Source: Pyrolobus fumarii 1A
GTDB lineage: Archaea; Thermoproteota; Thermoprotei_A; Sulfolobales; Pyrodictiaceae
Direction of reading: 5' to 3'
Assembly (NCBI RefSeq): GCF_000223395.1
Contig: NC_015931.1
Coordinates: 420,001-452,000, forward strand
Length of the DNA: 32,000 nt
The translations under genes were made by a program, and so were the position numbers. The notes under the pieces were generated by a model that did no database searches, was not told the origin of the DNA, and saw nothing but the letters and a program-made list of their open reading frames with translations. Positions 3,159 through 21,516 of the stretch are shown piece by piece (position 1 is the first letter of the stretch; the number at the start of each line of letters is the position of its first letter).

Positions 3159-3581
3159 TCACGGGTCTATCCCTCGTTTGTGTGCCTCCTCGAGCAGCTT
3201 GGCTGCAAGCACTACGGGCTTGCTGTACTCCCTCTCCTCGACCAGCCTCCTCACGAGCCGCATATCGACAGTCGCGTACTCGTGTACGACGATGTTGCGG
3301 AAGCCTGCTATGCTCTTTAGGAGCCTCGCCTCGGCGTCGTTGATGACGCCTTCTCTCCTAAGCGCCTGGATGGCCTCACGCGTTGTGCTCGGGGTGTAGC
3401 CCAGCTCGGCTGCGAAACGCTTAGCCATGTCTATCAGCGCCTGGGCTTGCACCTGGAGGAGGTGGAGGGCGGCCAGCTCCTCGACCCACGTCCTCAGCCC
3501 CATCTCTCGGAGCCTGTCGAGCCTCTCCGCGGCCTCGACAACCGTGTTGTAGAGTCTCGCAAGGATGCCCGTGGCCCCCAC
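3159..3581 (-). CDS. hepT: DUF86/HepT HEPN-family toxin
   Basis: It carries the GFRNIVVHEY (R-x4-H HEPN) motif and lies downstream of and overlapping an MNT gene. The start is uncertain. An internal Met at about 3503 would reduce the 88-nt overlap. Confidence 0.75.
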   Translation of the reverse strand: MGATGILARLYNTVVEAAERLDRLREMGLRTWVEELAALHLLQVQAQALIDMAKRFAAELGYTPSTTREAIQALRREGVINDAEARLLKSIAGFRNIVVHEYATVDMRLVRRLVEEREYSKPVVLAAKLLEEAHKRGIDP

Positions 3582-4030
3582 CTGCGTAGAGCGGCCCGCA
3601 CCGCAGCCTCAATAACGTTGAGCTTGCGGCTGGATATCGCCTCGTCCTCGCAGACGCCGAGCCTCCTGAGCAGCTCGTCTATGAGCGCCCCCCGATCCAC
3701 CGTATAGAGGATCACATTGTGCCTCGCGGCCTCCTCTAGGAGGGGGCACGGAGCCTCATCGAGGCCGATCACGTCCACCTGGTCCGGGTCTATGCCCAGG
3801 GCGTCCGAGACCGTGAGCATAACCCTAAGCTTCTCCTCCATGTCGAGGTGTCTACCCCCGCAGGGCAGTACGAGCAGGTCTACGTCGCGGCCTACGCCCC
3901 TCCGCGCGAGAGACCCTACGAGCAGCACGTGGCAGACCCCAAGCTTACGCCACTCTAGCCTCCTCAACCTCTCCACGACATCGGCAGCATTGAGCAATAG
4001 CCTGCGCCGTGCCCGGAGAGCAAGAGCCAA
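3494..4030 (-). CDS. mntA: Minimal nucleotidyltransferase antitoxin (MntA-like)
   Basis: VLLVGSLARRGVGRDVDLLVL matches the GS-x(n)-DxD NTase signature. The C-terminal ~30 aa look non-native and overlap hepT, so a frameshift or a long overlap is possible. Confidence 0.7.
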   Translation of the reverse strand: MALALRARRRLLLNAADVVERLRRLEWRKLGVCHVLLVGSLARRGVGRDVDLLVLPCGGRHLDMEEKLRVMLTVSDALGIDPDQVDVIGLDEAPCPLLEEAARHNVILYTVDRGALIDELLRRLGVCEDEAISSRKLNVIEAAVRAALRRWGPRASLRDSTTRLSRPRRGSTGSERWG

Positions 4031-4886: not shown

Positions 4887-5327
4887 TTGCCGAGCATCGA
4901 GGAGTATAGGCTGCTGTTGCAGCGTAGCAGGATGTTCCTCGAGGAGGCTCGCGACGCGCTCGCCAAGCAGCGTTACGATCTGGCGGTTTTCCTCGCAGAG
5001 CAGGGACTACAGCTCTACCTCAGGGCTCAGCTTCTCCGCGTGCTGGGCGACTACCCTAGAACCCATAGCATCCGGCAGCTCCTCGCTATGCTCTCGAGGG
5101 CTCTCGGCGGCGAGGCCGAGAGGGAGATAGCCGAGTTCATGAGGCGCGAGAGGCCCCGCCTCTCCGAGCTCGAGGATGTGTATATAGCTTCTCGCTACAC
5201 TCTACGCGTCTACACGAGGGAGGACGCCGAGGACATACTATCCACCGTGGAGAGGGTGACAGCCCTTGTCGAGAAGCTACTCAGAGGTACTCCTCGAGAC
5301 GATGCTCGAGAGGAGACGCATGCTTAG
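4887..5327 (+). CDS. HEPN-domain protein (PF05168-type)
   Basis: YPRTHSIRQLL and IASRY motifs match the pattern PKTHSI...ARYP seen in the paralogue at 16392-16850. It is paired with the downstream NTase. Confidence 0.7.
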   Translation: MPSIEEYRLLLQRSRMFLEEARDALAKQRYDLAVFLAEQGLQLYLRAQLLRVLGDYPRTHSIRQLLAMLSRALGGEAEREIAEFMRRERPRLSELEDVYIASRYTLRVYTREDAEDILSTVERVTALVEKLLRGTPRDDAREETHA

Positions 5328-5625
5328 AAACTGGAAGCGGCTCGCGGAGGCAGTAGCCAGGGTCGTCAGGGAGGCCTACCCCGACGCCCGCGTCTACCTA
5401 ACCGGCAGCGTGGCTAGGGGAGAATGGACCGCAGCAAGCGACGTGGATATACTCGTAGCGCTCGACCATGAACCCTCTCCGCGAGAAGCGGCACAGGTGA
5501 TAGAATACATCTGGGAGAAGCTAGGCCTACCACCCAACCACCCCCTCGAGATACACGTGATCGGACCCCAAAGCCTCGAGAAGTACAGGAGACGCGCACC
5601 CCTCCAACCCCTAGACACCAAGTGA
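5266..5625 (+). CDS. Minimal nucleotidyltransferase (MNT, PF01909-type)
   Basis: It carries VYLTGSVARGEWTAASDVDILVAL. The likely true start is the ATG at 5320, which overlaps the HEPN stop (5325-5327) by 8 nt. Confidence 0.75.
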   Translation: MSRSYSEVLLETMLERRRMLRNWKRLAEAVARVVREAYPDARVYLTGSVARGEWTAASDVDILVALDHEPSPREAAQVIEYIWEKLGLPPNHPLEIHVIGPQSLEKYRRRAPLQPLDTK

Positions 5626-5697: not shown

Positions 5698-8600
5698 TCT
5701 TCAATCCGTTCTTGGTTGTTTCTTCAAAGCTCCATATTTTGTCCTCCAAGGCGAGATACTACCGCTTTCTTTCAATTCATTCCTGGTTGTCTCTCCACCC
5801 TTAGACCTACGCCAAATGCCTTACTTTCATACTAACCAACTTTCAATTCATTCTTTGTTGTTTCGTCCTCGCGGCGCTAGTGCTACTTGTGCCTGCTCTG
5901 GCGGCTAGCATCTTTCAATTCATTCTTTGTTGTTTCCGGCAAATGCAGCACGTTGTAGTGCCATACCTATCTGCATGGCCTTTCAATTCATTCTTTGTTG
6001 TTTCCTACAGCCAGTGGCGACGATGGACGATGTGAAGACGCTCCACCTTTCAATTCATTCTTTGTTGTTTCTCGTATACCTGGCGGAGTGGCTCCGTGCT
6101 CATTATCGTGTCTAGCTTTCAATTCATTCTTTGTTGTTTCCCGCTACGCCGCACTCGTTGACCTTCCGCCCCATCCCAAGAGTATCTTTCAATTCATTCT
6201 TTGTTGTTTCCCGTGCGGGCTGGGGAGGGGCGGGCGGAGACACCGAGGCACAGCCTTTCAATTCATTCTTTGTTGTTTCGAGCCGCAGCAGAGACTCCTC
6301 CTGGCCCGGCACCGGGTCTTTCAATTCATTCTTTGTTGTTTCCACTACGACGACTACCAGCCAACAAGCTTCGACAACGACCTTTCAATTCATTCTTTGT
6401 TGTTTCCTCACAGCACGTCACCCCACTACCATGACAACCACCCTGCCACTTTCAATTCATTCTTTGTTGTTTCACATAGTGCCGCTTGAGCGCATTGACG
6501 ACCCGGAGCGGTTCCTTTCAATTCATTCTTTGTTGTTTCCCGCCCTGCTGTACGCTATCAAACAAAATCCGAACATACTGCGCCTTTCAATTCATTCTTT
6601 GTTGTTTCGTGCGCATGCTCGTGCTAGTCACCCGCGGATTGCACTACTTCCTTTCAATTCATTCTTTGTTGTTTCTTTGGTATCGGTATTCTGCTTGGTG
6701 CAATTGCTAACGCCACCAACTTTCAATTCATTCTTTGTTGTTTCCTTATGCCCTCTTTTGCCCACTTGCGGAATAGCTCTATCCACTGACTTTCAATTCA
6801 TTCTTTGTTGTTTCTACGAGGCGCCCGACTGGCACCCGGAGGGAGTCACGGTAACCGTGCTTTCAATTCATTCTTTGTTGTTTCTGGGCAGCCGCCAAAG
6901 CCCGTCTATGCCAGCGGCGGCTACCTTTCAATTCATTCTTTGTTGTTTCTAGGCCTGCTAACACCCTGGCTCATACTAGGAGCAATGGCGACGGGCTACG
7001 TCTTTCAATTCATTCTTTGTTGTTTCCTGGCCCTGCAGGTCGATCACTGGGGTTATCGTGGTGTTCTTTCAATTCATTCTTTGTTGTTTCAAAAGATTGC
7101 TAAATGGCTCGAAGAGGACTTGTCTGACGAACTTTCAATTCATTCTTTGTTGTTTCGGGTTCATAGCATGGGCGGTTGGTATAGACGCCGAGATGGCCAG
7201 GCTTTCAATTCATTCTTTGTTGTTTCTAAGGGCGAGGAGCGCGAGGTTGACATGTGGGTCGTGCTTTCAATTCATTCTTTGTTGTTTCCTCGTCGCTACC
7301 CTCGATGAGGTACGGTGGTAGCATGAGCGCTGTCTTTCAATTCATTCTTTGTTGTTTCGCTCAGGTCCTCCGGTGCGTTCTCCAGCGCGTAGTTAACCTT
7401 TCAATTCATTCTTTGTTGTTTCGGGCGGACAGTTCTTCCACTACACGGTGTTGTCGTGGCTAACGCTTTCAATTCATTCTTTGTTGTTTCTATGCCTCGC
7501 GCCTTGGCCCAAGAACCTATATCGCGTACTCGTGCTTTCAATTCATTCTTTGTTGTTTCCCAGGATGGCCGCCGCGGCGGCAAAGATGTCCGCCTCTACC
7601 AACTTTCAATTCATTCTTTGTTGTTTCTCGGCTCGGCTTCCGTTCCTAGAGCGGCGGTATCGCCTAGAACTTTCAATTCATTCTTTGTTGTTTCTATGTA
7701 ACGCCGCGTTTCAGTGGCATGACGATGAGATGGGTGCTTTCAATTCATTCTTTGTTGTTTCACGAGAGCGGCGGCACGATATGCGAGTGTGAAGCCGACG
7801 ATGTCCTTTCAATTCATTCTTTGTTGTTTCACAGGGCCTCTCTACTCGACGCCAGGAAGCTGGTAAGGGTACTTTCAATTCATTCTTTGTTGTTTCCACG
7901 TTCTCCAGCCACTTTAGGAGCCACTCTTTCTTCTCCCCTTTCAATTCATTCTTTGTTGTTTCCCATGCGGCGGCTGCCGCTTCTCCACCAGCCGTCTTCA
8001 TACTTTCAATTCATTCTTTGTTGTTTCCTCGACCTTATCGCATGGCATGCAGTGAGCATGAGGAATGTCCTTTCAATTCATTCTTTGTTGTTTCCGCATA
8101 CCCTCTATACGCGGTGCGGGGATCCGGAAATGGTGGCTTTCAATTCATTCTTTGTTGTTTCCAGGCTTGGGTCGTGTCCACGCCCGAAGTCCGGTATCTT
8201 GCCAGGCTTTCAATTCATTCTTTGTTGTTTCACGTAGCTTAGGGTCGAACATGCCAACCGCTGGCTCTGTGTGCTTTCAATTCATTCTTTGTTGTTTCGA
8301 GGCTCTGGCAGATGGCCAAGGGCAGTGCTGGCAAGAAGCGGCTTTCAATTCATTCTTTGTTGTTTCCGTCCTTCGCGGGTTTACGCGTGGGGGTGCGTGG
8401 GATGGAGGCCGCCTTTCAATTCATTCTTTGTTGTTTCACACGCGTTTTTTCAACTTGCGCGACCTCGCACATCACGATCTGCCTTTCAATTCATTCTTTG
8501 TTGTTTCTTACGCGGTAGGCCCACGCGGAGGTGGTCGCGGGTGAAGCTTTCAATTCATTCTTTGTTGTTTCTATCGCGACAAACGTGCGCAGTGATGGAC

Positions 8601-10417
8601 GAATATACCTCCTTTCAATTCATTCTTTGTTGTTTCACAGTGGAGGTGAGCAAGCCATCCGACTGGTCTAGGAACAGGGCTACTTTCAATTCATTCTTTG
8701 TTGTTTCATGGGCTGTGTCGCGAGAACTGCTACCACGCGTGTATCATGGCATTGCTTTCAATTCATTCTTTGTTGTTTCCCGTGTGTGGCAAAAGTCGAA
8801 GGCAGAGGCGGCTACAAACCAACTTTCAATTCATTCTTTGTTGTTTCCTTGATTCTCAGCGCCACGAACGACGCTCTAGTATCGTCAATGACCTTTCAAT
8901 TCATTCTTTGTTGTTTCAGGCTGAACAGCTAGCACGGGGGAGGACACGAGCCATGAACGACTTTCAATTCATTCTTTGTTGTTTCGTGACGGGGTACCTA
9001 GCCACGGTTGTCACCTCCTAGATGTTCATACTTTCAATTCATTCTTTGTTGTTTCTCGCGGTAATAGTCCCCAGCGTCCGGGTCCACTGGTATCTCGACT
9101 TTCAATTCATTCTTTGTTGTTTCACTGAGGCCAGGGAGGAGCGGGAGCAGAAGCCCAGCGAGGCTTGCTTTCAATTCATTCTTTGTTGTTTCCGCGCGAC
9201 GTTATGGTCGTTCCCGCCGCGTCCGCCTCATCTTTCAATTCATTCTTTGTTGTTTCCTCGCTTCGAGAGGATAGTGATAAGGTGCGAGCCTATGACGCTT
9301 TCAATTCATTCTTTGTTGTTTCGTTAAACTAGAAATGAAAGCGCAAGGTTGTGAAAACGGGTGCTTTCAATTCATTCTTTGTTGTTTCCCCAGAAATATC
9401 TCGAACCGGAAATATCGAGCCCCGATAGGGTCACATTCCTTTCAATTCATTCTTTGTTGTTTCCTCACCCACCCGACCAGCGACCCATCACTAGCATTGT
9501 AGAACTCCCTTTCAATTCATTCTTTGTTGTTTCGTATTTGCACCACCAGCCGCAAGGCAGTATATGCCGCTTTTTCACTTTCAATTCATTCTTTGTTGTT
9601 TCCGCCTGGAGGTCTTCTGCGAGTGCAAGGGGTGTAGAGCCACTTTCAATTCATTCTTTGTTGTTTCATGATCTCAAATCGCGTCTCTTTACCGCCGCGA
9701 TCCTCTCCAGGCTTTCAATTCATTCTTTGTTGTTTCCATCAACGCTGTATCGTTCTTCCGCGATACGCCAAACCACTTGCTTTCAATTCATTCTTTGTTG
9801 TTTCGGATGTTACAACCCCAATAGTACCCAGTGTTGCATGTTCTCTTTCAATTCATTCTTTGTTGTTTCCGCGAGTGGTGGTTCGTGAAGGCGCGTCGCA
9901 TAACCGTGCTTTCAATTCATTCTTTGTTGTTTCCGCAGTTCCTGGCCACTGCCCGCCAGGTGCTAGAGAAGCTCGACTTTCAATTCATTCTTTGTTGTTT
10001 CTTTGGCTTCTCTTCATCCTCTAGACAATCACCGAGAATCAAGTCCTTTCAATTCATTCTTTGTTGTTTCATACATGTATGGGGTGGAGGTAGGTGATGC
10101 GACCAGTCATAGGCCCTTTCAATTCATTCTTTGTTGTTTCGCGCAAATGCTCGATACGTCCGCGGGAATATCCGCCTGTAGGCCTCCAGCTTTCAATTCA
10201 TTCTTTGTTGTTTCAAGTCCGGAATCTCGCTGGAGATGCCGAGGCGCGGTTTCGACTTTCAATTCATTCTTTGTTGTTTCACGGCCGCTGGCATATCCTC
10301 GCTCAGTAGCGTAGCTCCGATCAACTTTCAATTCATTCTTTGTTGTTTCCTGAAGGTTATGCTGGTGGTGTATGATGGTGGAATGCCAGTTACTTTCAAT
10401 TCATTCTTTGTTGTTTC
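5698..10417 (-). CRISPR. CRISPR array 1: 70 repeat units, 69 spacers
   Basis: There are 68 identical 25-nt repeats, CTTTCAATTCATTCTTTGTTGTTTC on the + strand, from 5840-5864 to 10393-10417. Two degenerate units lie at 5698-5722 and 5769-5793. Spacers are 37-52 nt and all look distinct by eye. Three observations indicate minus-strand transcription: the decayed units are at the left end, a conserved leader is at the right end, and the reverse complement ends in ATTGAAAG. Confidence 0.97.
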
Positions 10418-10690
10418 TGCATTCTTGCCATGTAGCTATAGGCCCTTCCCAGTATTTATTCTTGTCTGTCTTGTCTCTGTTTATGTGCATTTCGAGAGAT
10501 AGTGTGCGCCATGGCTGCCTGTGGGGCACGGTCCAGCGGTAGTACCGGGGTTATAAGCAGGGTAAAGTCTAAATACTGGATTGCAACAGTTTGGAGTATG
10601 TCCCGACCGCTGATAGTACCATGGGTAATGGTCCGCGGGTAGTACCGGGAGTTTAAAGGGTTACGCTAGAGGGTAGAAAAGGGTTGTGTC
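10418..10690 (-). promoter_or_regulatory. Leader of CRISPR array 1 with TATA-like box
   Basis: It is homologous, in inverted orientation, to 17302-17564. It holds a TGCATTCTTGCC flank, AATAAATA (reverse complement of 10453-10460) 36-43 nt from the first repeat, and two 17-bp dyad motifs at 10530-10546 and 10630-10646. Confidence 0.8.
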
Positions 10691-11016
10691 TAGGATGTGG
10701 GAGTTGCTGATTGTGTTTCCGTGTTTTGTTGTGTGTAGCTGTTGTGGTTGCGAGTTGTAGGTGATGTCTCAGTGTGCGCCTATGTCCGGGTTGTGTAGTG
10801 AGTTTGTTGTTTTACTGTCTCGTGTTGTGCTTGTCGCTTGTGTTGTAGCTTCTCTGTGCTGCTCTCTGGGCGCCCATTGTGCCTCTAGGAGAGGGTTCTT
10901 GCCATGAGACCGTGGGGTATGGTCCCGCTTTTGCCTGGGTTTGGCCTGGTTAGATCGTGGGTGTTGAGCCCGTGGGCCGTGGTGGCCGTGCCTGCAGGGT
11001 ACTACCGTGTCTTGCT

Positions 11017-11991
11017 CTACCTCGTCTCTATCCTGGTTGTCCCGAATCCTGCTGCTCGGCTGGCTCCCATGCCCATTACCGCTGCGTGGCTGAGGAGGTG
11101 CTCGGTTGTCTCGGTGTCTTCTGGCGTCGCGTCCTCGACGTAGAGCTTGGTGTAGCCTACTAGTGCGGGTAGGAGCCTGCCGCTGTGTATGTAGTAGCGG
11201 AGTCTTGTTGTTCTCCAGGTGGCTGGTGAGGGTGAGAGTGTCCTCTCGGCGGCCTCCACCATCTCGAGGGCTCTCCTGTGATCGCCCTCTGCTAGCTCCA
11301 GGGCGTTGACGTAGAGGAGGTATGAGGGTGCTGGTAGTAGCCTCTTCCAGCGGGAGCCGGGGCGCCAGGGGTTAACCGGCAGCGTGGGCGCCATGAGGGT
11401 TATCTTGACGCTGGTGGCGTCGCGTAGCCTGATTATGGGCTTGCCGCCCGGATCGTAGGTGGCCACCCTCCTGGCGTCCACGAGCTCGACGCGCAGCGTG
11501 TGCATCGAGAAGTCTATGTTGACGCCCTTATCCAGGCACGAGACCACCTCGTCTATCACATCCTCGAGGCCCGGGCCGAGCCCCACGTGGAAGGCGAGGG
11601 TGGAGCCGCTCTCGACCACTGGGTACTCGGTGCTCCTGCCGTCCCAGGAGCCGGGGTAGACCGCCTCGACCCTGCCGCCCTCGACGCGGAGGAGGGGTGA
11701 GAGCGAGAGGGGCTTGGGAAGAGTCAGCCCATCGTGGTTCAGTATGAGGGCGGCTGTGCGGGAACACGTGGCCACCAAGCCCCTCACGAGCTTACCCGTG
11801 TAGTCCGTGACGAGGAGGGGGCCGTAGCCGAGCCGGAGCCACAGCCTCACCCGCAGCTCCCAACGCTGGAATATCGTCAACCAGCCGCCGGCCCCTGGCT
11901 CCAACCACACGAGAGGCGCGTATAGACATAGAGGCGGCAAAGAACCCAGGCAAACAGTCACCAGTGCACCAGTCTCTACCGCGCTCCACAC
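11017..11991 (-). CDS. cas6: Cas6 endoribonuclease paralogue A
   Basis: The C-terminus has a glycine-rich loop, HLLSHAAVMGMGASRAAGFG (Cas6 GhGxxxxxGhG-type). It is homologous along its length to the ORF at 14107-15078, sharing LPVNPWRPGSRWKRLLP among other segments. It lies adjacent to leader 1. The first ~40 aa are doubtful, so the true start is probably internal. Confidence 0.75.
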   Translation of the reverse strand: MWSAVETGALVTVCLGSLPPLCLYAPLVWLEPGAGGWLTIFQRWELRVRLWLRLGYGPLLVTDYTGKLVRGLVATCSRTAALILNHDGLTLPKPLSLSPLLRVEGGRVEAVYPGSWDGRSTEYPVVESGSTLAFHVGLGPGLEDVIDEVVSCLDKGVNIDFSMHTLRVELVDARRVATYDPGGKPIIRLRDATSVKITLMAPTLPVNPWRPGSRWKRLLPAPSYLLYVNALELAEGDHRRALEMVEAAERTLSPSPATWRTTRLRYYIHSGRLLPALVGYTKLYVEDATPEDTETTEHLLSHAAVMGMGASRAAGFGTTRIETR

Positions 11992-12275
11992 GGAGCCCCA
12001 AGGATACCCGGCATCATGCCCGTGTGTGACCGCGGCGGCATCGAGAGCAGCTAATGGAATCCAAGACTAGTACGAGAGCGTCGATCACGTTGGCCCTAGT
12101 TCACTAGGGGAAGGCGAGCAGAGGGTACACCGTGGTGCCTCCAACGGGCCAGGTTAGGCCCTACAAGTCGTCCCGGCGATAGACGGTGTAAAGGACTGCT
12201 GTTTGTTTGGGCTGAGAGATTGTGTGGTTAGTGAGGGGCTGGTAAGCCTGGGACGGGGTGCTGGGCTACTGGCCG

Positions 12276-12827
12276 TCAATGCTTGCGGCTGTGCTCTATC
12301 CTGGCCCGGATCTCCTCGACCAGCTTCTCTGCCTCGGCTAGTACGGCCTCTACGTCTCTGCGTGTACACCAGCCCTCGTAGAAGCAGGTGTGGAGGCTGT
12401 TGGCCTCGCGGAACACCCTCCCTATCCACTCTCCCAGCTCGCGAGCGACAACATCCTTGTACTCCCATAGCTCGCCGTGGCTAGCCAGCCTCCTCCCATC
12501 CCTCCAGGCCGCATACGCCTTCACGGCTAGCGCCACAGCGCCCCAAATCTTCTCAGCAGCCTGCCTATGGTCGCCCCTACCCAGCTCTCCCCTCGCCTGC
12601 CCAAGGAGCAGGCTAGCGGCCTCGATGTAGTCCAGAGCCCTCTCCCTCGGATCCGCCTCCCGCTCCACAAGCTCGATGATATACTCCTCGACCGTCACAC
12701 CTAGACGCTCAGCCTCCCTCTTAACCCTCTCACCAACCCTAGGGGGGAGCACGATAACCAGACCAGCCAAGACCCTACCATCCCCAGTCTTAGGGGTAGG
12801 CAGTACGCCCCACAAAACGTGTAACAC
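12276..12827 (-). CDS. PaREP1-family protein with N-terminal RHH-like segment
   Basis: AAEKIWGAVALAVKAYAAWRDGRRLASHGELWEY...ANSLHTCFYEGW matches the remembered PaREP1 pattern (EKxWGA..VK..A...SH..LW...A..LH..FYEG). The N-terminal VKREAERLGVTVEEYIIELV looks CopG/RHH-like. Confidence 0.7.
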   Translation of the reverse strand: MLHVLWGVLPTPKTGDGRVLAGLVIVLPPRVGERVKREAERLGVTVEEYIIELVEREADPRERALDYIEAASLLLGQARGELGRGDHRQAAEKIWGAVALAVKAYAAWRDGRRLASHGELWEYKDVVARELGEWIGRVFREANSLHTCFYEGWCTRRDVEAVLAEAEKLVEEIRARIEHSRKH

Positions 12828-12945
12828 ATGAACCTGAGGCGCTGCAACACCCCGGCTTGCCGAGCCGGTTCCCTGGGTCCGGGGGCGGTCCAGGGCTTTC
12901 GAATAGTGTCACTGTAGACTGTACCGCGACTCCCTTGCCCGGCTG

Positions 12946-14052
12946 GTGGTGCTGGCCAGCGGCGCCATGCGCTTTAATTTTATGCAGCGACGCTACTGTC
13001 TTCGTTGCTGGGAGTGTCTTGGCGTGGCTTCGTGGCGTAGGGTTAGGCTGGTCTTCGCCCCTGGTCTCACAGTAGAGTTTGTTGACCGCGAGCGTGGTTT
13101 GAGGCAGGTTGAGGGTCTCGCCGGGAGGGGTACGAGGTTCCCCGTGGTGATCTATGGGCCGGAGGGTTGCGGGAAGACCGCGTTTCTCCGCCAGGTTTTC
13201 GAGGTTTTGAAGAGCCTCGGGTATAGCGTCGTCTACGTGAATCCGCTCGGGAGGGAGGCTGGGGAGAGGCTGCTGACGACGGAGGATGTGAGGAGTCTCG
13301 TGGGCGCGTTGGCCGAGTTTGCTCTTGGCGGTGGGGCTGCGAGGCTCGTAGACGCGGCTTTGGGAGTCGCGTCTAGGCTGTTCGGGCGTAGCAGGAGGAT
13401 AGCGTTCATAGCGGATGACGTATTCCAGGCTATTGGTGTCGAGGAGGCCGAGTTGTACGTCAAGAGGCTGTTGAACCTCATCGAGTATCCTCCGGGCGAG
13501 TATGAGAGGATTGTTGTCCTGGTGGCGTCTAGCGAGGGCGTCACGAGGGGGAGGATCTCTAGGCACAACTGGGCGAAGCTCATGATGATGTGGAACATGC
13601 CGAGGAGCGCCCTGGAGGAGCTCTACGAGCAGATACCGGGCGCTAAGCCGGGCTTCGACGAGGTGTGGGCCTGGACCGGCGGAAACCCGAGGTACCTGAG
13701 CCGACTCTACGAGGCCGGGTGGCGGGTGGACCGCGTGATAGAGGAGATCGTCGCTGAGAGGAGGGTGTTGCGGGCGCTCGCCCGGAGGTGGAGAAGAGAG
13801 CTGGAGGAGACTGTCAACGACCCGGACTACCTCATGGAGGAGTATGAGAGGGTGGAGGGGCTTGCACGGAAACTGATAGAACTCAACATGGTGGTGGAGG
13901 TCGTCGAGTACCGCAGCGAGGATCTCTGGATAGACACGCCTCCGCCCGAGAGGGACCCGGAGCTGGGCATAGGAAGGTTCTACGCATGGGCGACCCCGCT
14001 TCACAGGGAGGCTGTCAGGAGGATACTCTCCGAGTATTCTCTGAGCGGGTGA
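12946..14052 (+). CDS. Archaeal AAA+ ATPase (Arch_ATPase/PF01637-like)
   Basis: FVDRERGLRQVEGL is followed by a Walker A motif, VVIYGPEGCGKTAFL. Walker B reads IAFIADDVFQ, and TGGNPRYL is also present. The start is uncertain: a TTTAATTTTA box at 12971-12980 suggests a downstream start such as the GTG at 13024. Confidence 0.75.
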   Translation: MVLASGAMRFNFMQRRYCLRCWECLGVASWRRVRLVFAPGLTVEFVDRERGLRQVEGLAGRGTRFPVVIYGPEGCGKTAFLRQVFEVLKSLGYSVVYVNPLGREAGERLLTTEDVRSLVGALAEFALGGGAARLVDAALGVASRLFGRSRRIAFIADDVFQAIGVEEAELYVKRLLNLIEYPPGEYERIVVLVASSEGVTRGRISRHNWAKLMMMWNMPRSALEELYEQIPGAKPGFDEVWAWTGGNPRYLSRLYEAGWRVDRVIEEIVAERRVLRALARRWRRELEETVNDPDYLMEEYERVEGLARKLIELNMVVEVVEYRSEDLWIDTPPPERDPELGIGRFYAWATPLHREAVRRILSEYSLSG

Positions 14053-14106
14053 CGCTAGCGTAGAGTAGCCGCGGCTAGTGGTGCGCGTCGGGCGCCCGTG
14101 GGGCTC

Positions 14107-15078
14107 CTAGCCCTCGAGCCTATCGGTGGACGGCATGGCCTCTATGCTTACCGCGCCGAAGCCAGCCGCCCTCCCGGAACCCACCCCCATGACCACAGCG
14201 TGGCTGAGGAGGTGCTCCACGGTCTCTACCTCCCCCTTGCCCACCCCCTCTGTCTCGACGTGGAGCTTCACATAGCCTATCATCGCTGGGAGCCTGCTCC
14301 CGTCGTACAGGTACCAGTATACCCTCGCGGTGTCGAGGGCCGCGTGGCTGGGGGATAGTATCCTCTCGGCGGCGATCAGCGCCCTCTCGACGAGAGCCGT
14401 GTCGGGGTCGAACATGTCGTGGGCGTTCACGGCCAGCAGGTATGAGGGTGTGGGCAGCAGCCTCTTCCAGCGGGAGCCGGGGCGCCAGGGGTTAACCGGC
14501 AGCGTGGGCGACCTAAACACGATCTTGACCGCCTCTACGCCGTCGAGCCTGACTATAGGGTCGCTGTGCGTGTCGTACTCCGCTATCATCCGGGCCTCTA
14601 CGGGCTCCACGGTGATAGCCGCTCCGCAGAACCTCACCGAGACGCCCCGCGAGAGGCACTCGAGCAAACGTGGCATCTCGTTAATCAAGTCGCCACCAGC
14701 ACCAACCTCGAAGAAGACCACCTCGCCGTCTTCGAGCACCGGGGCCCGTATCTTGTCGCGTTGCGGGCCGCCCGGGTACACCGCCTCGACCCTACCGGGG
14801 CCGGTCACGCGGAACAAGGGCGTCACGGAGAGCCTCTTGGCCACGCTCTTCTCCGAGGAGGAGAGTATGGACGCGAACCTCTCCGAGCACACCGCTAGGA
14901 GGCTCTTCACGAGCTTCCCGGTGTAGTTGCACACGCGTAGAGAGCCGAAGCCATACACCCTAACCGTGAAGGACCATCGCTCGAACCTAGCCACTCTATA
15001 GCCCCCGTGCACAGAGGAGCAGGGATTCAAGAAGGGTTTTCGAGCAGGATTTGCGGGAGACGCGCCCTGGTGCAACAC
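14107..15078 (-). CDS. cas6: Cas6 endoribonuclease paralogue B
   Basis: It has the glycine loop HLLSHAVVMGVGSGRAAGFG and the N-terminal pattern WSFTVRVYGFGSLRVCNYTGKLVKSLL. It is a paralogue of 11017-11991 and lies 29 nt downstream of an MNT gene on the same strand. Confidence 0.75.
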   Translation of the reverse strand: MLHQGASPANPARKPFLNPCSSVHGGYRVARFERWSFTVRVYGFGSLRVCNYTGKLVKSLLAVCSERFASILSSSEKSVAKRLSVTPLFRVTGPGRVEAVYPGGPQRDKIRAPVLEDGEVVFFEVGAGGDLINEMPRLLECLSRGVSVRFCGAAITVEPVEARMIAEYDTHSDPIVRLDGVEAVKIVFRSPTLPVNPWRPGSRWKRLLPTPSYLLAVNAHDMFDPDTALVERALIAAERILSPSHAALDTARVYWYLYDGSRLPAMIGYVKLHVETEGVGKGEVETVEHLLSHAVVMGVGSGRAAGFGAVSIEAMPSTDRLEG

Positions 15079-15107
15079 CGGGGCGGGTGTGCAGCCCAGC
15101 GACCTCT

Positions 15108-15452
15108 CTACCCGTCAACCCCAGGGTCTACCCGCACATGCCTATACCTGGCTAGCATCTCTCTACACTCCTCATCACTATGCACGTGCAGCTCTACGGG
15201 GTAGTCTATCGGGAGGCCGTGCTTATCGAAAGCCTCCTTTAGCACCGCGTGCTTCACCAGCCTCGGGTCGGCGTCCTCCTCGAGGCACAGGAGCACATCC
15301 ACATCGCTGAGGACTGTTAGCCTGCCCTCCGCGGCGCCACCGATGACATACACTCTGGCCCTCAACCCGAGGCTCTCGACAGCCCTGGCTATGGCCTCGG
15401 CAGCCTCCCTCCACCTCCTCAGGTACTCTACGTGGTGCCTAGCCCAGAGCAC
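15108..15452 (-). CDS. Minimal nucleotidyltransferase (MNT)
   Basis: It carries VYVIGGAAEGRLTVLSDVDVLLCL and overlaps the upstream HEPN gene by 14 nt. Confidence 0.75.
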   Translation of the reverse strand: MLWARHHVEYLRRWREAAEAIARAVESLGLRARVYVIGGAAEGRLTVLSDVDVLLCLEEDADPRLVKHAVLKEAFDKHGLPIDYPVELHVHSDEECREMLARYRHVRVDPGVDG

Positions 15453-15939
15453 GCCTCTCGACCTCCTCTAGCAGCTCGAATAGTCTCTTCGCGGCCAGTA
15501 TCACATCCGCGACCTCCCGAGCCCCCAGCGTAAAGACCCCATAACGGGCCGATGTATAGGCGTCCTCAGCGTCTATAAGCTGGTCGCGGTACTCCCTCGT
15601 GTACCTCCTGACCTCACCTGCGAGGCTCCGGCACCCCAGCTCCTCCAGCACACGCGCCAGTATCCCGAGCAGCTCGCGGAGACCGTGTATCCTCGGCATT
15701 TCGCCGGAGAGGCGGAGCAGAGACGCTTTTACGCGCAGCTGCATAGCCTGCTCGGCGCAGAAAGCGGCGATGTCATACCGCCCTCTCTCCAGCAGCTCGC
15801 GAGCCAGGGATAGGAAGAAGCGTGCACGATCCTTCAACAGCTCTACACGCTCACCACTACCCATCACGCACCCCGAAGAACCGAGAAACACGAGAACATT
15901 ATACACCATGACGCCGCCATACAGCTGGTACACCGACAA
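15439..15939 (-). CDS. HEPN-domain protein
   Basis: It carries MPRIHGLRELL and YTSARYG motifs. The likely start is the internal Met at about 15864 (MGSGERVELL...). Confidence 0.7.
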   Translation of the reverse strand: MSVYQLYGGVMVYNVLVFLGSSGCVMGSGERVELLKDRARFFLSLARELLERGRYDIAAFCAEQAMQLRVKASLLRLSGEMPRIHGLRELLGILARVLEELGCRSLAGEVRRYTREYRDQLIDAEDAYTSARYGVFTLGAREVADVILAAKRLFELLEEVERRALG

Positions 15940-16102
15940 GACACTATGGCCGCGCGCATAACCGCGGGGGAGGACGCCGCTGCTCGAGACGAGCGTCCCG
16001 CTAGACCCGTCAAACCGAGACGAGGTTGGATAGCCGAGAGGAAGAGCACGGTGACCCCCAAGACGCGGCGAGGCGCTACACGCGGCCTCGTAGAACTATG
16101 GG

Positions 16103-16546
16103 CTACACTATGCGCATCCAGTACCTAGACGCGTCTCTCAACACCACGCTCTTCTCGAGCCTGTCGCGAAGCTCCTCGGGCGTGAGGGGTATGAGGGTCG
16201 CGTCCCTCTCCCACCTCCAGAGCCGGTATAGCATAGAGAGCCTCTCCTCCATAGTGTAGCGCCCCCAGTCCCTAGATACTATCACGAGGTCGACATCGCT
16301 CTCGGCGGTGTAGTCCCCCCGCGCTATACTGCCGAAGAGGTAGACCGCCTCTACCCTCACGCCGCGCCCCCTGAGCTCTACAGTCAGCTCCTCAACCCAC
16401 CTGCGTATCTCCTCGAGAAGCCTCCTCCACTGCTCTCTCCGCCGCCTCAACAACTCTCCTAGCGGCAGCCACTGCTCTCTCCGCGGTTCTCCCGCTGATA
16501 ACTTCATCCGGGAGGCCCTCCACGACATCCGGGTACCTCGCGACAT
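16103..16546 (-). CDS. Minimal nucleotidyltransferase (MNT)
   Basis: It carries VYLFGSIARGDYTAESDVDLVIV. The listed start overlaps the HEPN gene by 155 nt, and an in-frame TTG near 16450 after GGAG is a more plausible start. Confidence 0.7.
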   Translation of the reverse strand: MSRGTRMSWRASRMKLSAGEPRREQWLPLGELLRRRREQWRRLLEEIRRWVEELTVELRGRGVRVEAVYLFGSIARGDYTAESDVDLVIVSRDWGRYTMEERLSMLYRLWRWERDATLIPLTPEELRDRLEKSVVLRDASRYWMRIV

Positions 16547-16850
16547 AGTAGTATTGTGTCAGCTCGTATGCGTCCTCCAGTTCCTCCCTGCCTAGCCCCA
16601 GGTTGGAGCCTAGCTCCTCGAAAAGCCTCCGGATGCTATGCGTCTTCGGGAAATAGCCTTTAAGAGCGAGCAAGACAGCTTTAAGCGCCTTCTCGGCAGC
16701 CTGCTGCGCCCAGAACACGGCGGCCGCACGATCACCCTCCCTAAGGCTACGCTCGGCACGCTCAAGATCCCTCCTTGCGAGCCTCAACCACCATAAAACC
16801 TGCTCCCTAACCACCCTCCACACCCTTACAGCCGCGCCACTACACAGCAT
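16392..16850 (-). CDS. HEPN-domain protein
   Basis: It carries YFPKTHSIRRLFEEL and YYVARYPD, the classical PF05168-type HEPN motifs. Confidence 0.75.
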   Translation of the reverse strand: MLCSGAAVRVWRVVREQVLWWLRLARRDLERAERSLREGDRAAAVFWAQQAAEKALKAVLLALKGYFPKTHSIRRLFEELGSNLGLGREELEDAYELTQYYYVARYPDVVEGLPDEVISGRTAERAVAAARRVVEAAERAVEEASRGDTQVG

Positions 16851-16974
16851 CTATACACTACATGACAGCCAGGCAGCTACCGCGCAATGGGCCCTTTGTA
16901 GCACCGACGCCAACCCTACTCATACACCACCCCCACAAAAACACCACCGGAAAACCAAGAACAACCAATGAACG

Positions 16975-17241
16975 TTAGGACCTCGACTCACACCATACCA
17001 ACGGATCACCGCCCAAGCTCCCTTTGACGCCAGGCATCCCACCAACAATACTCACCTCGAAGAACAGAACCTCACCATATCCAGCCATATCCGCAGCACC
17101 CTCCCGCGTAACAAGCCGCCCCTTACACAGCCTCAACCCTGCCAGGCCAACCACACGGAACAACAGGAGGGTAACAGACAGCCTCTTGGCCACACCCCTC
17201 TGCGACAGGGGAAGGGACACCAACAAACCTCTCCAAAACAT
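16975..17241 (-). pseudogene. cas6: Truncated, decayed cas6 fragment abutting leader 2
   Basis: GVAKRLSVTLLLFRVVG...GEVLFFEVSIVGG aligns with SVAKRLSVTPLFRVTG...GEVVFFEVGAGG of Cas6 B (about aa 85-140). The N-terminal ~55 aa and the C-terminal half, including the glycine loop, are absent. Confidence 0.6.
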
Positions 17242-17289
17242 ATAACCAATAAATTTCCCACAGACTCATCACAAGCTTAAAAACAAATA

Positions 17290-17564
17290 CACTAGCAATC
17301 CTTATCTACCCTCTACAACAATATTTTTAACCCCTGGTACTACCGGTGGACCGTCGCTCACGGTCCCATGGGTGGATGTGAGGTACTCCCGACCGCTGTA
17401 ATCCGGTATTTAACCCTTGCCCGGCTTATAAACTCGGTACTACCCGCGGACCATACCCCACGGCCATCTGTGCCCGGCACGACTACACTCAAATCACAGA
17501 AACAAAGACAACAGAGAAAAGAATAAATAGAAGAGAGACCCTATAACCACACGGCAAGAATGCA
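17290..17564 (+). promoter_or_regulatory. Leader of CRISPR array 2 with TATA-like box
   Basis: It is the inverted homologue of 10418-10690. AATAAATA lies at 17522-17529, 36-43 nt upstream of the first repeat. Dyad motifs lie at 17336-17352 and 17436-17452, and GGCAAGAATGCA directly abuts the first repeat. Confidence 0.8.
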
Positions 17565-18822
17565 GAAACAACCAAGAATGAATTGAAAGCTTCAGCGCGT
17601 AGTAGTGGCGCTCGAGACTCCTTGGCGAGTAGGAAACAACCAAGAATGAATTGAAAGTTCATCACGGTCGGTATGAGTGGGAGCGGCGGGTTTGGGAAAC
17701 AACCAAGAATGAATTGAAAGTCCAGGTGCTCGATGGCCCATAGTGGCGCCTCTACAAGCGCGAATGGAAACAACCAAGAATGAATTGAAAGAAGGATGCG
17801 TTCGAGAACTGATATCGCGTTGTCAATTTCCCTCCGGGGAAACAACCAAGAATGAATTGAAAGGAGAGGAAGGCTGCCCCGGACCTCGTCCGCTCTATCG
17901 TCGATGGAAACAACCAAGAATGAATTGAAAGGCTATCATCGCCTCCAGTTTGGCAATGATTTGGTCAGCCTGTGAAACAACCAAGAATGAATTGAAAGAA
18001 GCTTCTTGTACGTCTCAACGTCGGCCTCAACGCGTATTACTTTCGAAACAACCAAGAATGAATTGAAAGGCGACGTACGCGATGTGTGGCGACTCGTTGA
18101 ACTGTGTGTTCTGCCGAAACAACCAAGAATGAATTGAAAGTACAAACTCGTAGTTCTCTCCGCCACGGTTTATAACGATGAGAAACAACCAAGAATGAAT
18201 TGAAAGTGCCTCGAACCTCGCGGCGGCCCTGTTATGGTTCGTGGCGGTGTGAAACAACCAAGAATGAATTGAAAGAACTATGCTCTGTAGTAGCCTGGGA
18301 AGCTCCGCGCTCATCCCGCGAAACAACCAAGAATGAATTGAAAGTAGTACACGCAATACGGCATTGCACACCCACCACGCGTACACTCTAGAAACAACCA
18401 AGAATGAATTGAAAGTAGTGTGGCACGACAGTGGCTATGACTTAGTGCCGGGCTATAGCCAGAAACAACCAAGAATGAATTGAAAGGTGACACTATACAA
18501 CATCACGGACGTCGTGAAGAGGAGCGTGAAACAACCAAGAATGAATTGAAAGTTAACCCGGCCGCGCGCCGCGACGATCTCGAGATCGCGCCGGCGGAAA
18601 CAACCAAGAATGAATTGAAAGGTGATAAAGTACGGCGCGCAATACGGCACCGGGTTCTGGATTGAAACAACCAAGAATGAATTGAAAGTGATCTCCTGTG
18701 GGTTCGGTTTCTCCACCCTGATCTCGACATCAGAAACAACCAAGAATGAATTGAAAGGTAGCTGAGACCATAGCGTAGCCGGTAGAGTTGTGCCACGGGA
18801 AACAACCAAGAATGAATTGAAG
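17565..18822 (+). CRISPR. CRISPR array 2: 19 repeat units, 18 spacers
   Basis: The repeat is GAAACAACCAAGAATGAATTGAAAG, first at 17565-17589. The terminal unit at 18799-18822 lacks one A (...ATTGAAG). Spacers are 38-47 nt. The leader is on the left, and the ATTGAAAG 3' end is typical of Cas6-processed archaeal repeats. Confidence 0.97.
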
Positions 18823-18894
18823 ATGTTTAGGGTGGCTGGCTTGGTTGGTCTGGTTGCGTCCGCGTGTTTTGCCGGGTGGGTTTCTGCGTTGCGG

Positions 18895-19563
18895 TCATCC
18901 TCTGTAGGGTGTGCACATTCTTGGTACGGGGCTTTCTTGGGGGTCGCCGTCGTAGGTTATTCTCCCGTCTTGGAGTATGATTACGCGTTGGAAGTCTAGC
19001 CCTGGGTCTATATGCGAGGCTATTATCGTTAGCGTGTATCTCTCCTCTGCCTGCTCGGTTATGAACTCGCGTATCGCCCATATGGAGTCGTAGTCTATGC
19101 CGTTGAACGGCTCGTCTATGAGGGCGACGCGGGGTCGCCGCGCGTAGGCGAGTGCTAGTTTCACTCTCTTCCTGTACCCGGTGGAGAGTGTGGCGTACCT
19201 CTCGGCTAGTACCTTCCGGAGCCCCAGGCCCTCGATTACGTCGCTACAGTCGTTGAGGCACGTCATGTCGAGTAGTTGTTCGACTGTGGCGTCTGGCGGC
19301 TCTACACTGTCGAGTAGGAAGCCTAGCCGGAGCTTGGACCATGCCTCCTCGACGCTCAGCCGTTCGCCGCCCACGTTGTATTCTATGCGGCCGCGGTTGG
19401 GTCGCAGCACGCCGGCCATCAGGGAGAGTAGTGTGGACTTCCCGCTGCCGTTCGGCCCCGCGACAAGGACTAGCCTCTCCCCGATCCTCAGCCTGTCGAT
19501 GCGGAGTGTGAAGCGCCCCCTCCTCTTCACGATGTTCTCGAGGAGGATCTCGACGTTGGCCAC
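18895..19563 (-). CDS. ABC transporter ATP-binding protein
   Basis: Walker A reads LVAGPNGSGKSTLL, the signature motif reads LSTGYRKR, and Walker B reads VALIDEPFNGID. Confidence 0.9.
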   Translation of the reverse strand: MANVEILLENIVKRRGRFTLRIDRLRIGERLVLVAGPNGSGKSTLLSLMAGVLRPNRGRIEYNVGGERLSVEEAWSKLRLGFLLDSVEPPDATVEQLLDMTCLNDCSDVIEGLGLRKVLAERYATLSTGYRKRVKLALAYARRPRVALIDEPFNGIDYDSIWAIREFITEQAEERYTLTIIASHIDPGLDFQRVIILQDGRITYDGDPQESPVPRMCTPYRG

Positions 19564-19564
19564 G

Positions 19565-19921
19565 CTACCACCCCGTCCTCGAGACTATAAGCTCGCCTAC
19601 GTGCGCCGTGTAGGGCGGGACACGCGCATGGACTATGATGATCGTCGGCGAGTGTGTGTAGGCGCTCGTGACGCACCCCAAGCCGGATAGGACTTTGACG
19701 CTGGTGTTCGCGTGGGCTTGTGGGCCGCCAGCCCAGACTAGGGTTATGTTCGCGCCGCTAACGCCGTGGAAGCATACGGTGTACCTACCGGCGCCGAGCC
19801 ACGCGCGGTACACGTACACCGCGTCGACGCTATAGGGCAGCAGGAGCTGCTCGACCGCGACCCTCGCCTCTAGCGGCGCGCACACCACAGCGACGCTGGC
19901 CGCCAGGGCCGCGAGCACCAC
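19565..19921 (-). CDS. Small exported protein, unknown function
   Basis: It has a hydrophobic N-terminus, VLAALAASVAVVCAPL. It is 1 nt from the ATPase gene and on the same strand, as part of the operon. Confidence 0.45.
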   Translation of the reverse strand: MVLAALAASVAVVCAPLEARVAVEQLLLPYSVDAVYVYRAWLGAGRYTVCFHGVSGANITLVWAGGPQAHANTSVKVLSGLGCVTSAYTHSPTIIIVHARVPPYTAHVGELIVSRTGW

Positions 19922-19958
19922 CAGGTACTGGGCCAGGAGTATCCTCGCGTAGCGCCTC

Positions 19959-20717
19959 CTAACCGCGCGCCTTGAGCCTCACCACCCCCGCCACACAGAG
20001 GAGCACGAGGATGCCCGCGAGTAGGGGGTAGGCTAGGGGGCTGGTCTCGCTGGGAAGCGAGAAGAGGGCCGTGAAGAAACGCTCGTTTGCAGCAAACCCC
20101 GCGAGGCTGTCGAGCACGATGAGGAGCACTGTGAGCGCCATCAGCGAGAGGATGGCTAGACCCCTATCACCCACGTGGAGCGCCAGGGCCGTACCGGCGA
20201 GCAGCCCGGCGATACCGGCTCTCAACGCGCCCCAGAAGGCGGCAGCCACGTCACCAACCACGCCGAGATACACGCGCAGAACGAGTAGCAGCGCGAGACC
20301 GCTGGCGGCCGACGCTGGCACCAGGACGCCAGCCACGTATAGCATTATGCGGGCTAGGCCCCGGAGCCTACCCCCAGCAGCAACCATATCGAGGAACACA
20401 TAGCCCCTCTCGACTCCACCCCCGAGGGCGAACACCACGTAGAAACCAGCCGCCAGGAACACCAGCAGAAGCACCAGGTCGACATAGCTCCTGGCTAGTG
20501 GGGACTCAAGCGTCAACGGCCTCTCCAGGAGAGTCTCCAACACGAGCTGCGGAGCGGCCCCCGTGCCGGTAGCGTTGAAGAGCATCCTAACCCCCATGTA
20601 CCCGCGGAGAGTATAGAGGAACACCAGGAGAGGCGCCGCCACCATCAACGCGAGGAGACCGGTGCAAACCCTGCACCTCCCCAGCGAGACGAGCACATAC
20701 GCCACGCCCATACTCAC
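19959..20717 (-). CDS. Polytopic membrane protein, probable ABC permease component
   Basis: It has at least 6 hydrophobic helices throughout and overlaps the upstream gene by 4 nt. Confidence 0.6.
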   Translation of the reverse strand: MSMGVAYVLVSLGRCRVCTGLLALMVAAPLLVFLYTLRGYMGVRMLFNATGTGAAPQLVLETLLERPLTLESPLARSYVDLVLLLVFLAAGFYVVFALGGGVERGYVFLDMVAAGGRLRGLARIMLYVAGVLVPASAASGLALLLVLRVYLGVVGDVAAAFWGALRAGIAGLLAGTALALHVGDRGLAILSLMALTVLLIVLDSLAGFAANERFFTALFSLPSETSPLAYPLLAGILVLLCVAGVVRLKARG

Positions 20718-21514
20718 CCCCTAGCCCTCCTCAACACGAGGAAGGCCGCGACCGGTATAGCAGCTAGACCGAGGAGCTTGACCAGCCCACCCCAGTCTAT
20801 GTAGTGTACCGGCTCGCACACGCCACCAACTCTGCTCGCGTTAATCCCCACCATATCCAGCTCAATATCAATCACGTGAACACCATCCGGCATCACAATC
20901 TTCGCGCGAACACTGATCGGATAGACATCCGAGCCATACGCAGCAGACAATAAGTCGTTAGCCTCAACAAGCCAGATGTTGATGACAGTATCATTATCTA
21001 GGATGAGATCATTACATGTGATGCTAACTCTCTTACCCTGATAAACAAGCCCCATATCGTTAATGGTGTAGTTCAGCACTAATGTGGTGTAAATTGGTGT
21101 GAAGCCTACGAAGATAGGCTCCAGTAGAGCTGTGTTGTTGAAGACCGTTAGCCATGCATAGTTAAACCTCTTGTACACCATGAGTGAGACGAGCTTCGCC
21201 GATACGTTGTTAGCGGGCGATAGCCACACCTCAAGATGCGTCCCGTTAACCTCCCTAACATTCACTCTGCACAAACTCTCGTAGCTCCATAGCACGTCGT
21301 ACACATTACCTGCCTCTACCCTAACAATATTATCATTGACGGAGGGAACCATATAATCTATCCAACACCAGTATAACTTACCATAATGCATTATGCGTAT
21401 GTCGGATACGCCTATTGCTGGATGTGAATGTGGCAACAGCAAAGCAGTAATGAAAAACAAAATGTTAATTGGCAGAGTTGCGTAGTGCACCCTCAGACAC
21501 GGCATAGCATACAC
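20714..21514 (-). CDS. Exported protein with N-terminal signal/TM and C-terminal TM anchor, many N-x-S/T sequons
   Basis: The N-terminal hydrophobic segment is INILFFITALLL. The C-terminal anchor is LLGLAAIPVAAFLVLRRARG. Sequons present include NVS, NNT, NYT, NDT and NAS. The gene is AT-rich relative to its downstream partners. Confidence 0.55.
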   Translation of the reverse strand: MYAMPCLRVHYATLPINILFFITALLLPHSHPAIGVSDIRIMHYGKLYWCWIDYMVPSVNDNIVRVEAGNVYDVLWSYESLCRVNVREVNGTHLEVWLSPANNVSAKLVSLMVYKRFNYAWLTVFNNTALLEPIFVGFTPIYTTLVLNYTINDMGLVYQGKRVSITCNDLILDNDTVINIWLVEANDLLSAAYGSDVYPISVRAKIVMPDGVHVIDIELDMVGINASRVGGVCEPVHYIDWGGLVKLLGLAAIPVAAFLVLRRARG

Positions 21515-21516
21515 CT

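Follow-up and report, generated by a model that had tools for sequence, protein, structure and literature searches.

Two divergent CRISPR arrays of Pyrolobus fumarii 1A as the probable crRNA-producing centre of a type III-B (Cmr) CRISPR-Cas locus

Introduction

A stretch of 32,000 nucleotides from the published genome of the hyperthermophilic archaeon Pyrolobus fumarii 1A (NC_015931.1, positions 420,001 to 452,000 of the forward strand, hereafter the window) carries two divergent CRISPR arrays, whose leaders face one another across cas6 genes, toxin-antitoxin pairs, an ATPase gene and a PaREP1 family gene. This arrangement raises the question whether CRISPR RNA (crRNA) would be produced here by a module that stands on its own, as was proposed in a preliminary description made from the window alone, or whether the arrays are part of a larger CRISPR-Cas locus. 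Our results favor the second answer: the locus is most probably the crRNA-producing centre of a type III-B (Cmr) CRISPR-Cas locus that lies within a defence island. The main value of the present analysis is therefore a correction, namely that the apparent isolation from effector genes is an artefact of the window boundary.

The adaptation, processing and interference genes of archaea form separate, exchangeable cassettes, and cas6 is found alone or with any of these cassettes (PMC3973734, PMC4390879, PMC4041471). It has been reported that in archaea 55% of the type III cassettes directly adjoin a CRISPR locus, that toxin-antitoxin pairs are common companions of such loci, and that HerA/NurA genes belong to their accessory genes (PMC3973734). 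Because cassettes are modular in archaea, the layout described below fits established knowledge. The kind of locus is already known, both arrays are tabulated for the published genome (425698-430417 with 70 repeats and 437565-438823 with 19 repeats; PMC12195208 Table S1), and the locus is a normal example of modular CRISPR-Cas organisation in hyperthermophilic archaea.

Results and Discussion

Effector genes beside the arrays

The flanks of the window were read from contigs built from public sequencing data of P. fumarii, which show no mismatches to the window over overlaps of 5863 nt (left) and 10,998 nt. What had been described as a cmr3 fragment at the left end of the window is in fact an intact gene of 434 amino acids cut by the window edge, and it directly follows cas10/cmr2. 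The effector genes and the arrays, in window numbering, are:

Left of cas10, divergent operon: cmr4, a gene of 225 amino acids in the cmr5 position, cmr6 and cmr1
-3602 to -357 (contig L011, 5202 to 8447): cas10/cmr2, 1081 amino acids
41 to 958, plus strand: cmr3, the last 305 of 434 codons, with the start 346 nt left of the window
5698 to 10417, minus strand: CRISPR array 1, 70 repeats of 25 nt and 69 spacers
17565 to 18823, plus strand: CRISPR array 2, 19 repeats of GAAACAACCAAGAATGAATTGAAAG and 18 spacers

Cas10/Cmr2 scores 137.4 bits against TIGR02577 (cut-off 79.4), and its translation contains both an HD motif (LLHDV) and the GGDD cyclase motif (YAGGDD), as found in type III-B systems. 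Among the other subunits, Cmr1 (637 amino acids, PADLOC E 1.4e-8), Cmr3 (PADLOC E 8.2e-11), Cmr4 (NCBIfam 139.7 bits, cut-off 87) and Cmr6 (56 bits, cut-off 51.1) are assigned by score and Cmr5 by position. A Cmr1 query against a collection of genome contigs gave no match. The module ends 4.7 kb from array 1, and the interval holds only an open reading frame of 126 amino acids without family match and three toxin-antitoxin pairs:

1776 to 2472, plus strand: AF2212-like antitoxin and PIN toxin (Pfam E 1.1e-19 and 2.7e-16)
3159 to 4030, minus strand: HepT-like HEPN RNase and nucleotidyltransferase (HepT-like E 4.1e-20, Polbeta E 1.3e-4)
4887 to 5625, plus strand: HEPN and MNT (NTP_transf_2; Pfam E 2e-25 and 2.2e-12), ending 73 nt short of the final repeat in array 1

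The situation is different for the adaptation genes. Among the scanned open reading frames and precomputed Pfam calls no match to the Cas1, Cas2 or Cas4 families was found in the window itself, in the 8.8 kb to its left or in the approximately 8.7 kb to its right, which reach to about 40.7 kb in window numbering. The earlier view of a module apart from both adaptation and effector genes is thus borne out in its first half, since separation from adaptation genes holds across the region read, while its second half fails on the full cmr1-6 set found 4.7 kb away.

The arrays and their leaders

Both arrays consist of regular, identical direct repeats with unique spacers of similar length, and in both a leader lies on one side while repeat decay is confined to the opposite end. 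The repeat of array 1 reads CTTTCAATTCATTCTTTGTTGTTTC on the plus strand and GAAACAACAAAGAATGAATTGAAAG in the crRNA sense, and its spacers, all of them unique, are 37-52 nt long. Perfect repeats make up 68 of the 70 in array 1; the two degenerate ones, with 5 and 3 mismatches, stand at its left end (5698-5722 and 5769-5793), are the oldest of the array and carry C at position 9. In array 2 the single degenerate repeat among 19 is the rightmost, terminal one, which ends in ...TTGAAGA. Read in the same sense, the repeats of the two arrays differ in one base, array 1 having A and array 2 having C at position 9. No additional decayed repeats were seen outside either array end, and among the 87 spacers there are no duplicates and none common to both arrays. 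Both repeat variants are predicted to be unstructured (minimum free energy 0), and an Rfam scan gave no match at the gathering threshold. Tandem Repeats Finder reported neither array and is unsuitable as a CRISPR detector here; a k-mer periodicity scan, which recovers both, was used to screen related loci. The 2011 genome announcement of P. fumarii 1A gives "CRISPR repeats 0" (PMC3156397), as against 89 repeats in this window alone.

The leaders are as follows:

10418 to 10686, minus strand: leader 1, 269 nt, two 100-bp tandem units and a proximal AAGAATAAATA box
17296 to 17564, plus strand: leader 2, homologous to leader 1 in inverted orientation and likewise built of two units

Aligned without gaps, leader 1 and the reverse complement of leader 2 are identical at 189 of 269 positions (70%), compared with 97 of 269 in the best of 10,000 shuffles, and the inverted homology which had been noticed before is in this way confirmed. 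It ends sharply, with 29% identity beyond -269, and the two leader arms are 6609 nt apart. The final 12 nt ahead of repeat 1, GGCAAGAATGCA, are the same in both leaders, the TATA-like AAGAATAAATA is conserved in both at about 35-45 nt upstream of repeat 1, and the GC content of the last 100 nt is 0.43-0.45 (AT-richer). Array 1 probably reads leftward and array 2 rightward, because the repeats decay at the far ends, the repeat has the 3' end ATTGAAAG, the leaders are AT-richer and a promoter-like box is present. The orientation given earlier for both arrays, with the decayed repeats of array 1 at its left end and array 2 running away from its leader, agrees with this.

Each 100-bp leader unit begins with a TATA-like box, which is followed by a motif of 17 nt, GGTACTACC-N3-GGACC. 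Its four exact copies in the window, as against 0.24 expected by chance, lie at 10530-10546 and 10630-10646 (minus strand) and at 17336-17352 and 17436-17452 (plus strand), so that the copies within a leader are exactly 100 bp apart; none was found in the rest of the window or in the other loci fetched. A hairpin at this motif was considered and rejected, as it is not conserved among the four units, and the motif is therefore treated as a signal at the DNA level which may be a candidate protein-binding site. It is rather improbable, in our estimate, that the leader is a docking platform for a lineage-specific factor which would let a distant Cas1-Cas2 integrase feed arrays lacking adaptation genes in their vicinity, with the anciently split Cas6 paralogs dividing the crRNA supply between Cmr and type I-A complexes.

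The Cas6 proteins between the leaders

All items previously reported from the 6.6 kb between the leaders were found again:

11017 to 11991, minus strand: cas6-1 (Pyrfu_0458), annotated product 287 amino acids, probable start near 11880
12276 to 12827, minus strand: PaREP1 family gene (Pfam E 1.6e-23)
12946 to 14052, plus strand: archaeal ATPase (PF01637, ATPase_2; Pfam E 1.1e-62)
14107 to 15078, minus strand: cas6-2 (Pyrfu_0461), annotated product 295 amino acids, start 14994
15108 to 15452 and 15439 to 15939, minus strand: MNT and HEPN (Pfam E 8.7e-7 and 6.6e-25)
16103 to 16546 and 16392 to 16850, minus strand: MNT and HEPN (Pfam E 2e-10 and 4.4e-32; MntA E 6.9e-8)
17035 to 17214, minus strand: relic of a third cas6, matching residues 72-131 of Cas6-2 and truncated on both sides

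Pfam scores by themselves make a weak case for Cas6, Cas6-2 matching PF10040 with 26.8 bits (cut-off 25); the same family is matched by all ten aligned members of the lineage to which Cas6-1 and Cas6-2 belong. The AlphaFold (AF2) model of Cas6-2 (pLDDT 79, pTM 0.79) has as its best Foldseek match the Cas6 of Sulfolobus solfataricus (4ILM/4ILL, E 2e-11, TM 0.58-0.66), and the top 18 as well as 29 of the 31 top matches in the PDB are Cas6 proteins or domains. A G-rich C-terminal loop, GxGSGRAAGFG, is conserved across the aligned members. Judged by loop and Pfam family, and for Cas6-2 also by a predicted fold with the two RAMP/ferredoxin-like domains of solved Cas6 structures, Cas6-1 and Cas6-2 are members of the Cas6 endoribonuclease lineage. 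An exhaustive profile search returned 93 cluster representatives of this lineage among 1.84 billion proteins, nine of ten sampled remote relatives from this search match Cas6 Pfam domains, and the lineage has the invariant motif PxLPVNPW..S..KRL.P.P. Scanning metagenomes with the Cas6 profile yielded one contig of 1.1 kb.

The two paralogs are 48% identical (E 1e-87), while orthologs in other organisms are closer, at 60% for Cas6-1 (P0006) and 65% for Cas6-2, which indicates that the cas6 duplication is old and that both copies have been kept. The relic was detected by tblastn with Cas6-2 (41% identity, E 0.002) and is also supported by DNA repeats and by translation of its open reading frame.

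More broadly, the structural matches of the Cas6-2 model among S. solfataricus Cas6 proteins (SSO2004/SSO1437; 4ILL, 4ILM, 3ZFV) have E values from 2e-11 to 2e-9 and TM scores of 0.5-0.66. As here, S. solfataricus has several Cas6 paralogs per genome, with non-structured repeats as substrate (PMC4041471), and the predicted lack of structure in the P. fumarii repeats agrees with this best structural match, which was solved on a non-structured repeat. Cas6-2 differs from these proteins in having only 10-12% sequence identity to them, and in its own small lineage with an invariant motif. By analogy with published Cas6 biochemistry (PMC4041471), and given the repeat end ATTGAAAG, cleavage of the repeat by Cas6 would be expected 8 nt from the 3' end.

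Candidate signalling genes right of array 2

To the right of array 2 two genes with CARF domains were found:

22528 to 24252, minus strand: CARF-domain protein, true length about 529 amino acids
31003 to 31488, minus strand: Pyrfu_0485, minimal CARF protein and Crn1 homolog, 161 amino acids

The statement that the window contains no interference genes besides cmr3 is literally true of core effector genes, and these two type III accessory genes had been missed. The longer protein has its best PADLOC CARF match at E 7.1e-9 (residues 49-173), carries the motif VDVTGGTKLMSS and is a candidate cyclic-oligoadenylate-responsive accessory protein. Its C-terminal part of about 350 amino acids has no family match in Pfam, NCBIfam or PDB, and its AF2 model is unusable (pLDDT 34). 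A PIN domain in this part, proposed on the motifs WGDTN and TNDKGAF, was rejected as unsupported (hhalign probability 0.07%). Homologs are rare, only three among 5.8 billion proteins, and in a relative (L010) the homolog is part of a syntenic block, with a RAMP gene cluster 5 kb away.

In a PDB sequence search Pyrfu_0485 matches SSO2081, a Crn1 ring nuclease, with E 1.9e-10 over residues 4-143, and it also matches PADLOC CARF_m13 with E 1.2e-44, as expected of a Crn1 homolog; a Crn1 paralog, Pyrfu_0517, has been mentioned in the literature (PMC3973734). Taken together with the GGDD motif of Cas10, its sequence implies signalling by cyclic oligoadenylate in this locus. Further toxin-antitoxin pairs lie right of the gene for the longer CARF protein, and the window has seven such pairs or pair-like combinations in 32 kb.

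Past the right window edge (contig L007, 3619 to 7292; about 31615 to 35288 in window numbering, plus strand) a gene of 545 amino acids without family match is followed by a HerA ATPase of 677 amino acids. The latter matches PADLOC HerA models, one of them labelled "Type III coevolved", and the two genes are probably a NurA/HerA-type CRISPR accessory pair.

A probable type III-B locus and its alternatives

Established Cas6 and Cmr biology, applied to the anatomy, homologies, motifs and adjacency observed here, suggests how transcription, cleavage, loading and signalling may proceed. The two arrays of one repeat family would be transcribed outward from their homologous 269-nt leaders, and one or both of the Cas6 paralogs would cleave within the unstructured 25-nt repeat, at 8 nt from the 3' end, yielding crRNAs with a 5' AUUGAAAG handle. 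These crRNAs would be loaded into the Cmr1-6 complex encoded immediately to the left, as is suggested by the genomic proximity of 4.7 kb, and probably also into a type I-A complex whose genes lie in another part of the genome; both type I-A and type III-B are recorded for P. fumarii (PMC12195208). Binding of target RNA would switch on the GGDD cyclase of Cas10, and the resulting signal would be read and erased by two proteins encoded right of array 2, the CARF protein and the Crn1-type ring nuclease. New spacers would be inserted in trans by Cas1/Cas2/Cas4 from elsewhere in the genome.

Several observations weigh against this interpretation. The Cmr module faces the trailer end of array 1 and not its leader end, and three toxin-antitoxin pairs intervene, which makes the linkage one of proximity and not of an operon. 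The gene of 225 amino acids has no family match, so that Cmr5 is assigned by its position only, and Cas6-1 stays under the PF10040 cut-off of 25 with 17.8 bits (E 0.0055). For the 87 spacers no protospacers were found, whether in the window and the fetched loci or among INPHARED phages and PLSDB plasmids, so that activity of the arrays on real targets is at most presumed; scans with the exact repeat of viral, genome and metagenome collections likewise gave no match, the P. fumarii genome evidently not being among the readable entries. Finally, two related Pyrodictiaceae-like genomes, both assembled from metagenomes, have tandem cas6 homologs of about 297 and 275 amino acids (L001, 10001-11721; L003, 10001-11722) which sit among housekeeping genes, between MFS transporter and phosphodiesterase genes. 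The k-mer periodicity scan of loci L001 to L013 detected no array, and none within 10 kb of these cas6 pairs. With cas6 pairs lacking an array in relatives, the linkage of cas6 and arrays is not conserved there; the remaining cas6 homologs are at contig ends, where arrays may be lost in assembly.

One competing explanation is that the arrays functionally serve a type I-A system elsewhere and that the adjacency of Cmr is incidental clustering in a defence island. Repeats of this kind, 25 nt long and ending in ATTGAAAG, are usually the substrate of I-A adaptation modules in crenarchaea. Two I-A gene clusters are recorded for P. fumarii, together with seven arrays of the repeat in a region of about 115 kb (PMC12195208). 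Seven toxin-antitoxin-like pairs in one window are also what is typically seen in a defence island. In Sulfolobales, however, it is the documented norm that I-A and III-B complexes have arrays and Cas6 in common (PMC4390879, PMC3973734), which makes exclusive use by I-A unlikely, and the arrays have Cmr genes on one side and CARF genes on the other; this explanation seems to us distinctly unlikely.

The idea of a self-standing crRNA-production module, physically apart from adaptation and effector modules, must be considered very unlikely. It accounts for the genes between the leaders, which are only cas6, toxin-antitoxin pairs, ATPase and PaREP1, and for the missing cas1/cas2/cas4 in the region read, but the cmr1-6 set ends at position 958 of the window, the "fragment" was created by the window edge, and CARF, Crn1 and HerA genes lie right of array 2, so that its effector half is already refuted by the flanks. 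That the arrays are decaying orphans out of use is hardly credible: the lack of adjacent adaptation genes and of protospacer matches would fit, but nearly all repeats are perfect (68/70 and 18/19), array 1 gained 67 spacers after its repeat variant arose, the leaders align gaplessly over 269 nt, and the cas6 and cmr genes are intact.

Origin of the array pair

Sequence comparison supports the descent of both arrays from one ancestral leader-plus-repeat unit. The terminal repeats of array 1 and array 2 are identical in 23 of 25 positions and share the derived ending ...TTGAAGA in place of ...TTGAAAG, and the oldest repeats of array 1 carry the C variant of array 2. The A variant would accordingly have arisen in array 1 after the split and been propagated through 67 later acquisitions. 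Outside the terminal repeats the trailer sequences of the two arrays show no convincing homology.

It had been proposed that one array arose from the other by inversion-duplication of its leader end. A common origin is in agreement with the shared derived repeats, while a simple local event is weakened by the co-oriented cas6 genes and by the absence of any shared spacer. A serious possibility, to which we give somewhat less than even weight, is that no local inversion-duplication took place and that the pair are two members of a family of seven arrays, with leaders that are alike by older descent and by selection through a shared adaptation machinery. The leaders are only 70% identical and their identity falls to random level beyond -269. 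Among arrays of one family, it is usual for about 230 bp of the leader to be conserved (PMC4390879). As cas6-1, cas6-2 and the relic share the minus strand, the two flanks do not mirror each other. For NC_015931.1, PMC12195208 Table S1 gives seven arrays of this repeat at 388-502 kb. One of them is at 388,807-391,251, and at a distance of 22 kb on the right there is a second minus/plus pair (461,092-466,549 and 473,827-475,977) with a gap of 7.28 kb, close to the gap of 7.15 kb here. According to the same table, and to its values only, the minus-strand arrays all have the A variant and the plus-strand arrays all have the C variant. On the other side, the shared ...TTGAAGA ending and the C variant in the oldest repeats of array 1 show that the arrays have a common descent, which does not tell where a duplication took place.

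Comparison with known systems

Paired arrays of type I-A systems in Sulfolobales (S. solfataricus C/D, S. islandicus REY15A loci 1/2; leaders of 200-400 bp) likewise have one repeat family and leaders conserved over about 230-270 bp, and they have in common with the P. fumarii pair 24-25-nt unstructured repeats, an 8-nt 5' handle and modular cassettes (PMC4390879, PMC4041471). Arrays of Sulfolobales usually have the adaptation cassette next to them, and their type III modules often lie far away (PMC4390879). The P. fumarii locus is unlike them in having cas6 and toxin-antitoxin genes between the arrays, Cmr adjacent, and a neighbourhood without adaptation genes, as no cas1/cas2/cas4 lies between or beside the paired arrays from -8.8 kb to about +40.7 kb. 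With type III-B loci which are contiguous with an array and lack cas1/cas2 it shares Cmr1-6, a Cas10 with HD and GGDD motifs, a nearby cas6, CARF accessory genes, a ring nuclease and HerA. It differs from such loci in its two divergent arrays, its two old cas6 paralogs with a relic, and the three toxin-antitoxin pairs between the cmr genes and the array.

The divergent Cas6 lineage, the twin motif of the leaders, the unassigned effector domain of the CARF protein and the derived terminal repeats are residual curiosities suited to small follow-ups, whose details are not expected to change current understanding.

Other genes of the window

The seven toxin-antitoxin-like pairs comprise AF2212/PIN, HepT/MNT, three HEPN/MNT, MazE/PIN and UPF0175/DUF3368-PIN. 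A cluster on the minus strand (18895-22176), which begins 72 nt past array 2, consists of an ABC-type ATPase gene and four open reading frames without family match, some of them hydrophobic, and may be an unrelated transporter. A further ATPase_2-like gene is located at 25781-26800 and a further PaREP1-like gene at 29283-29852.

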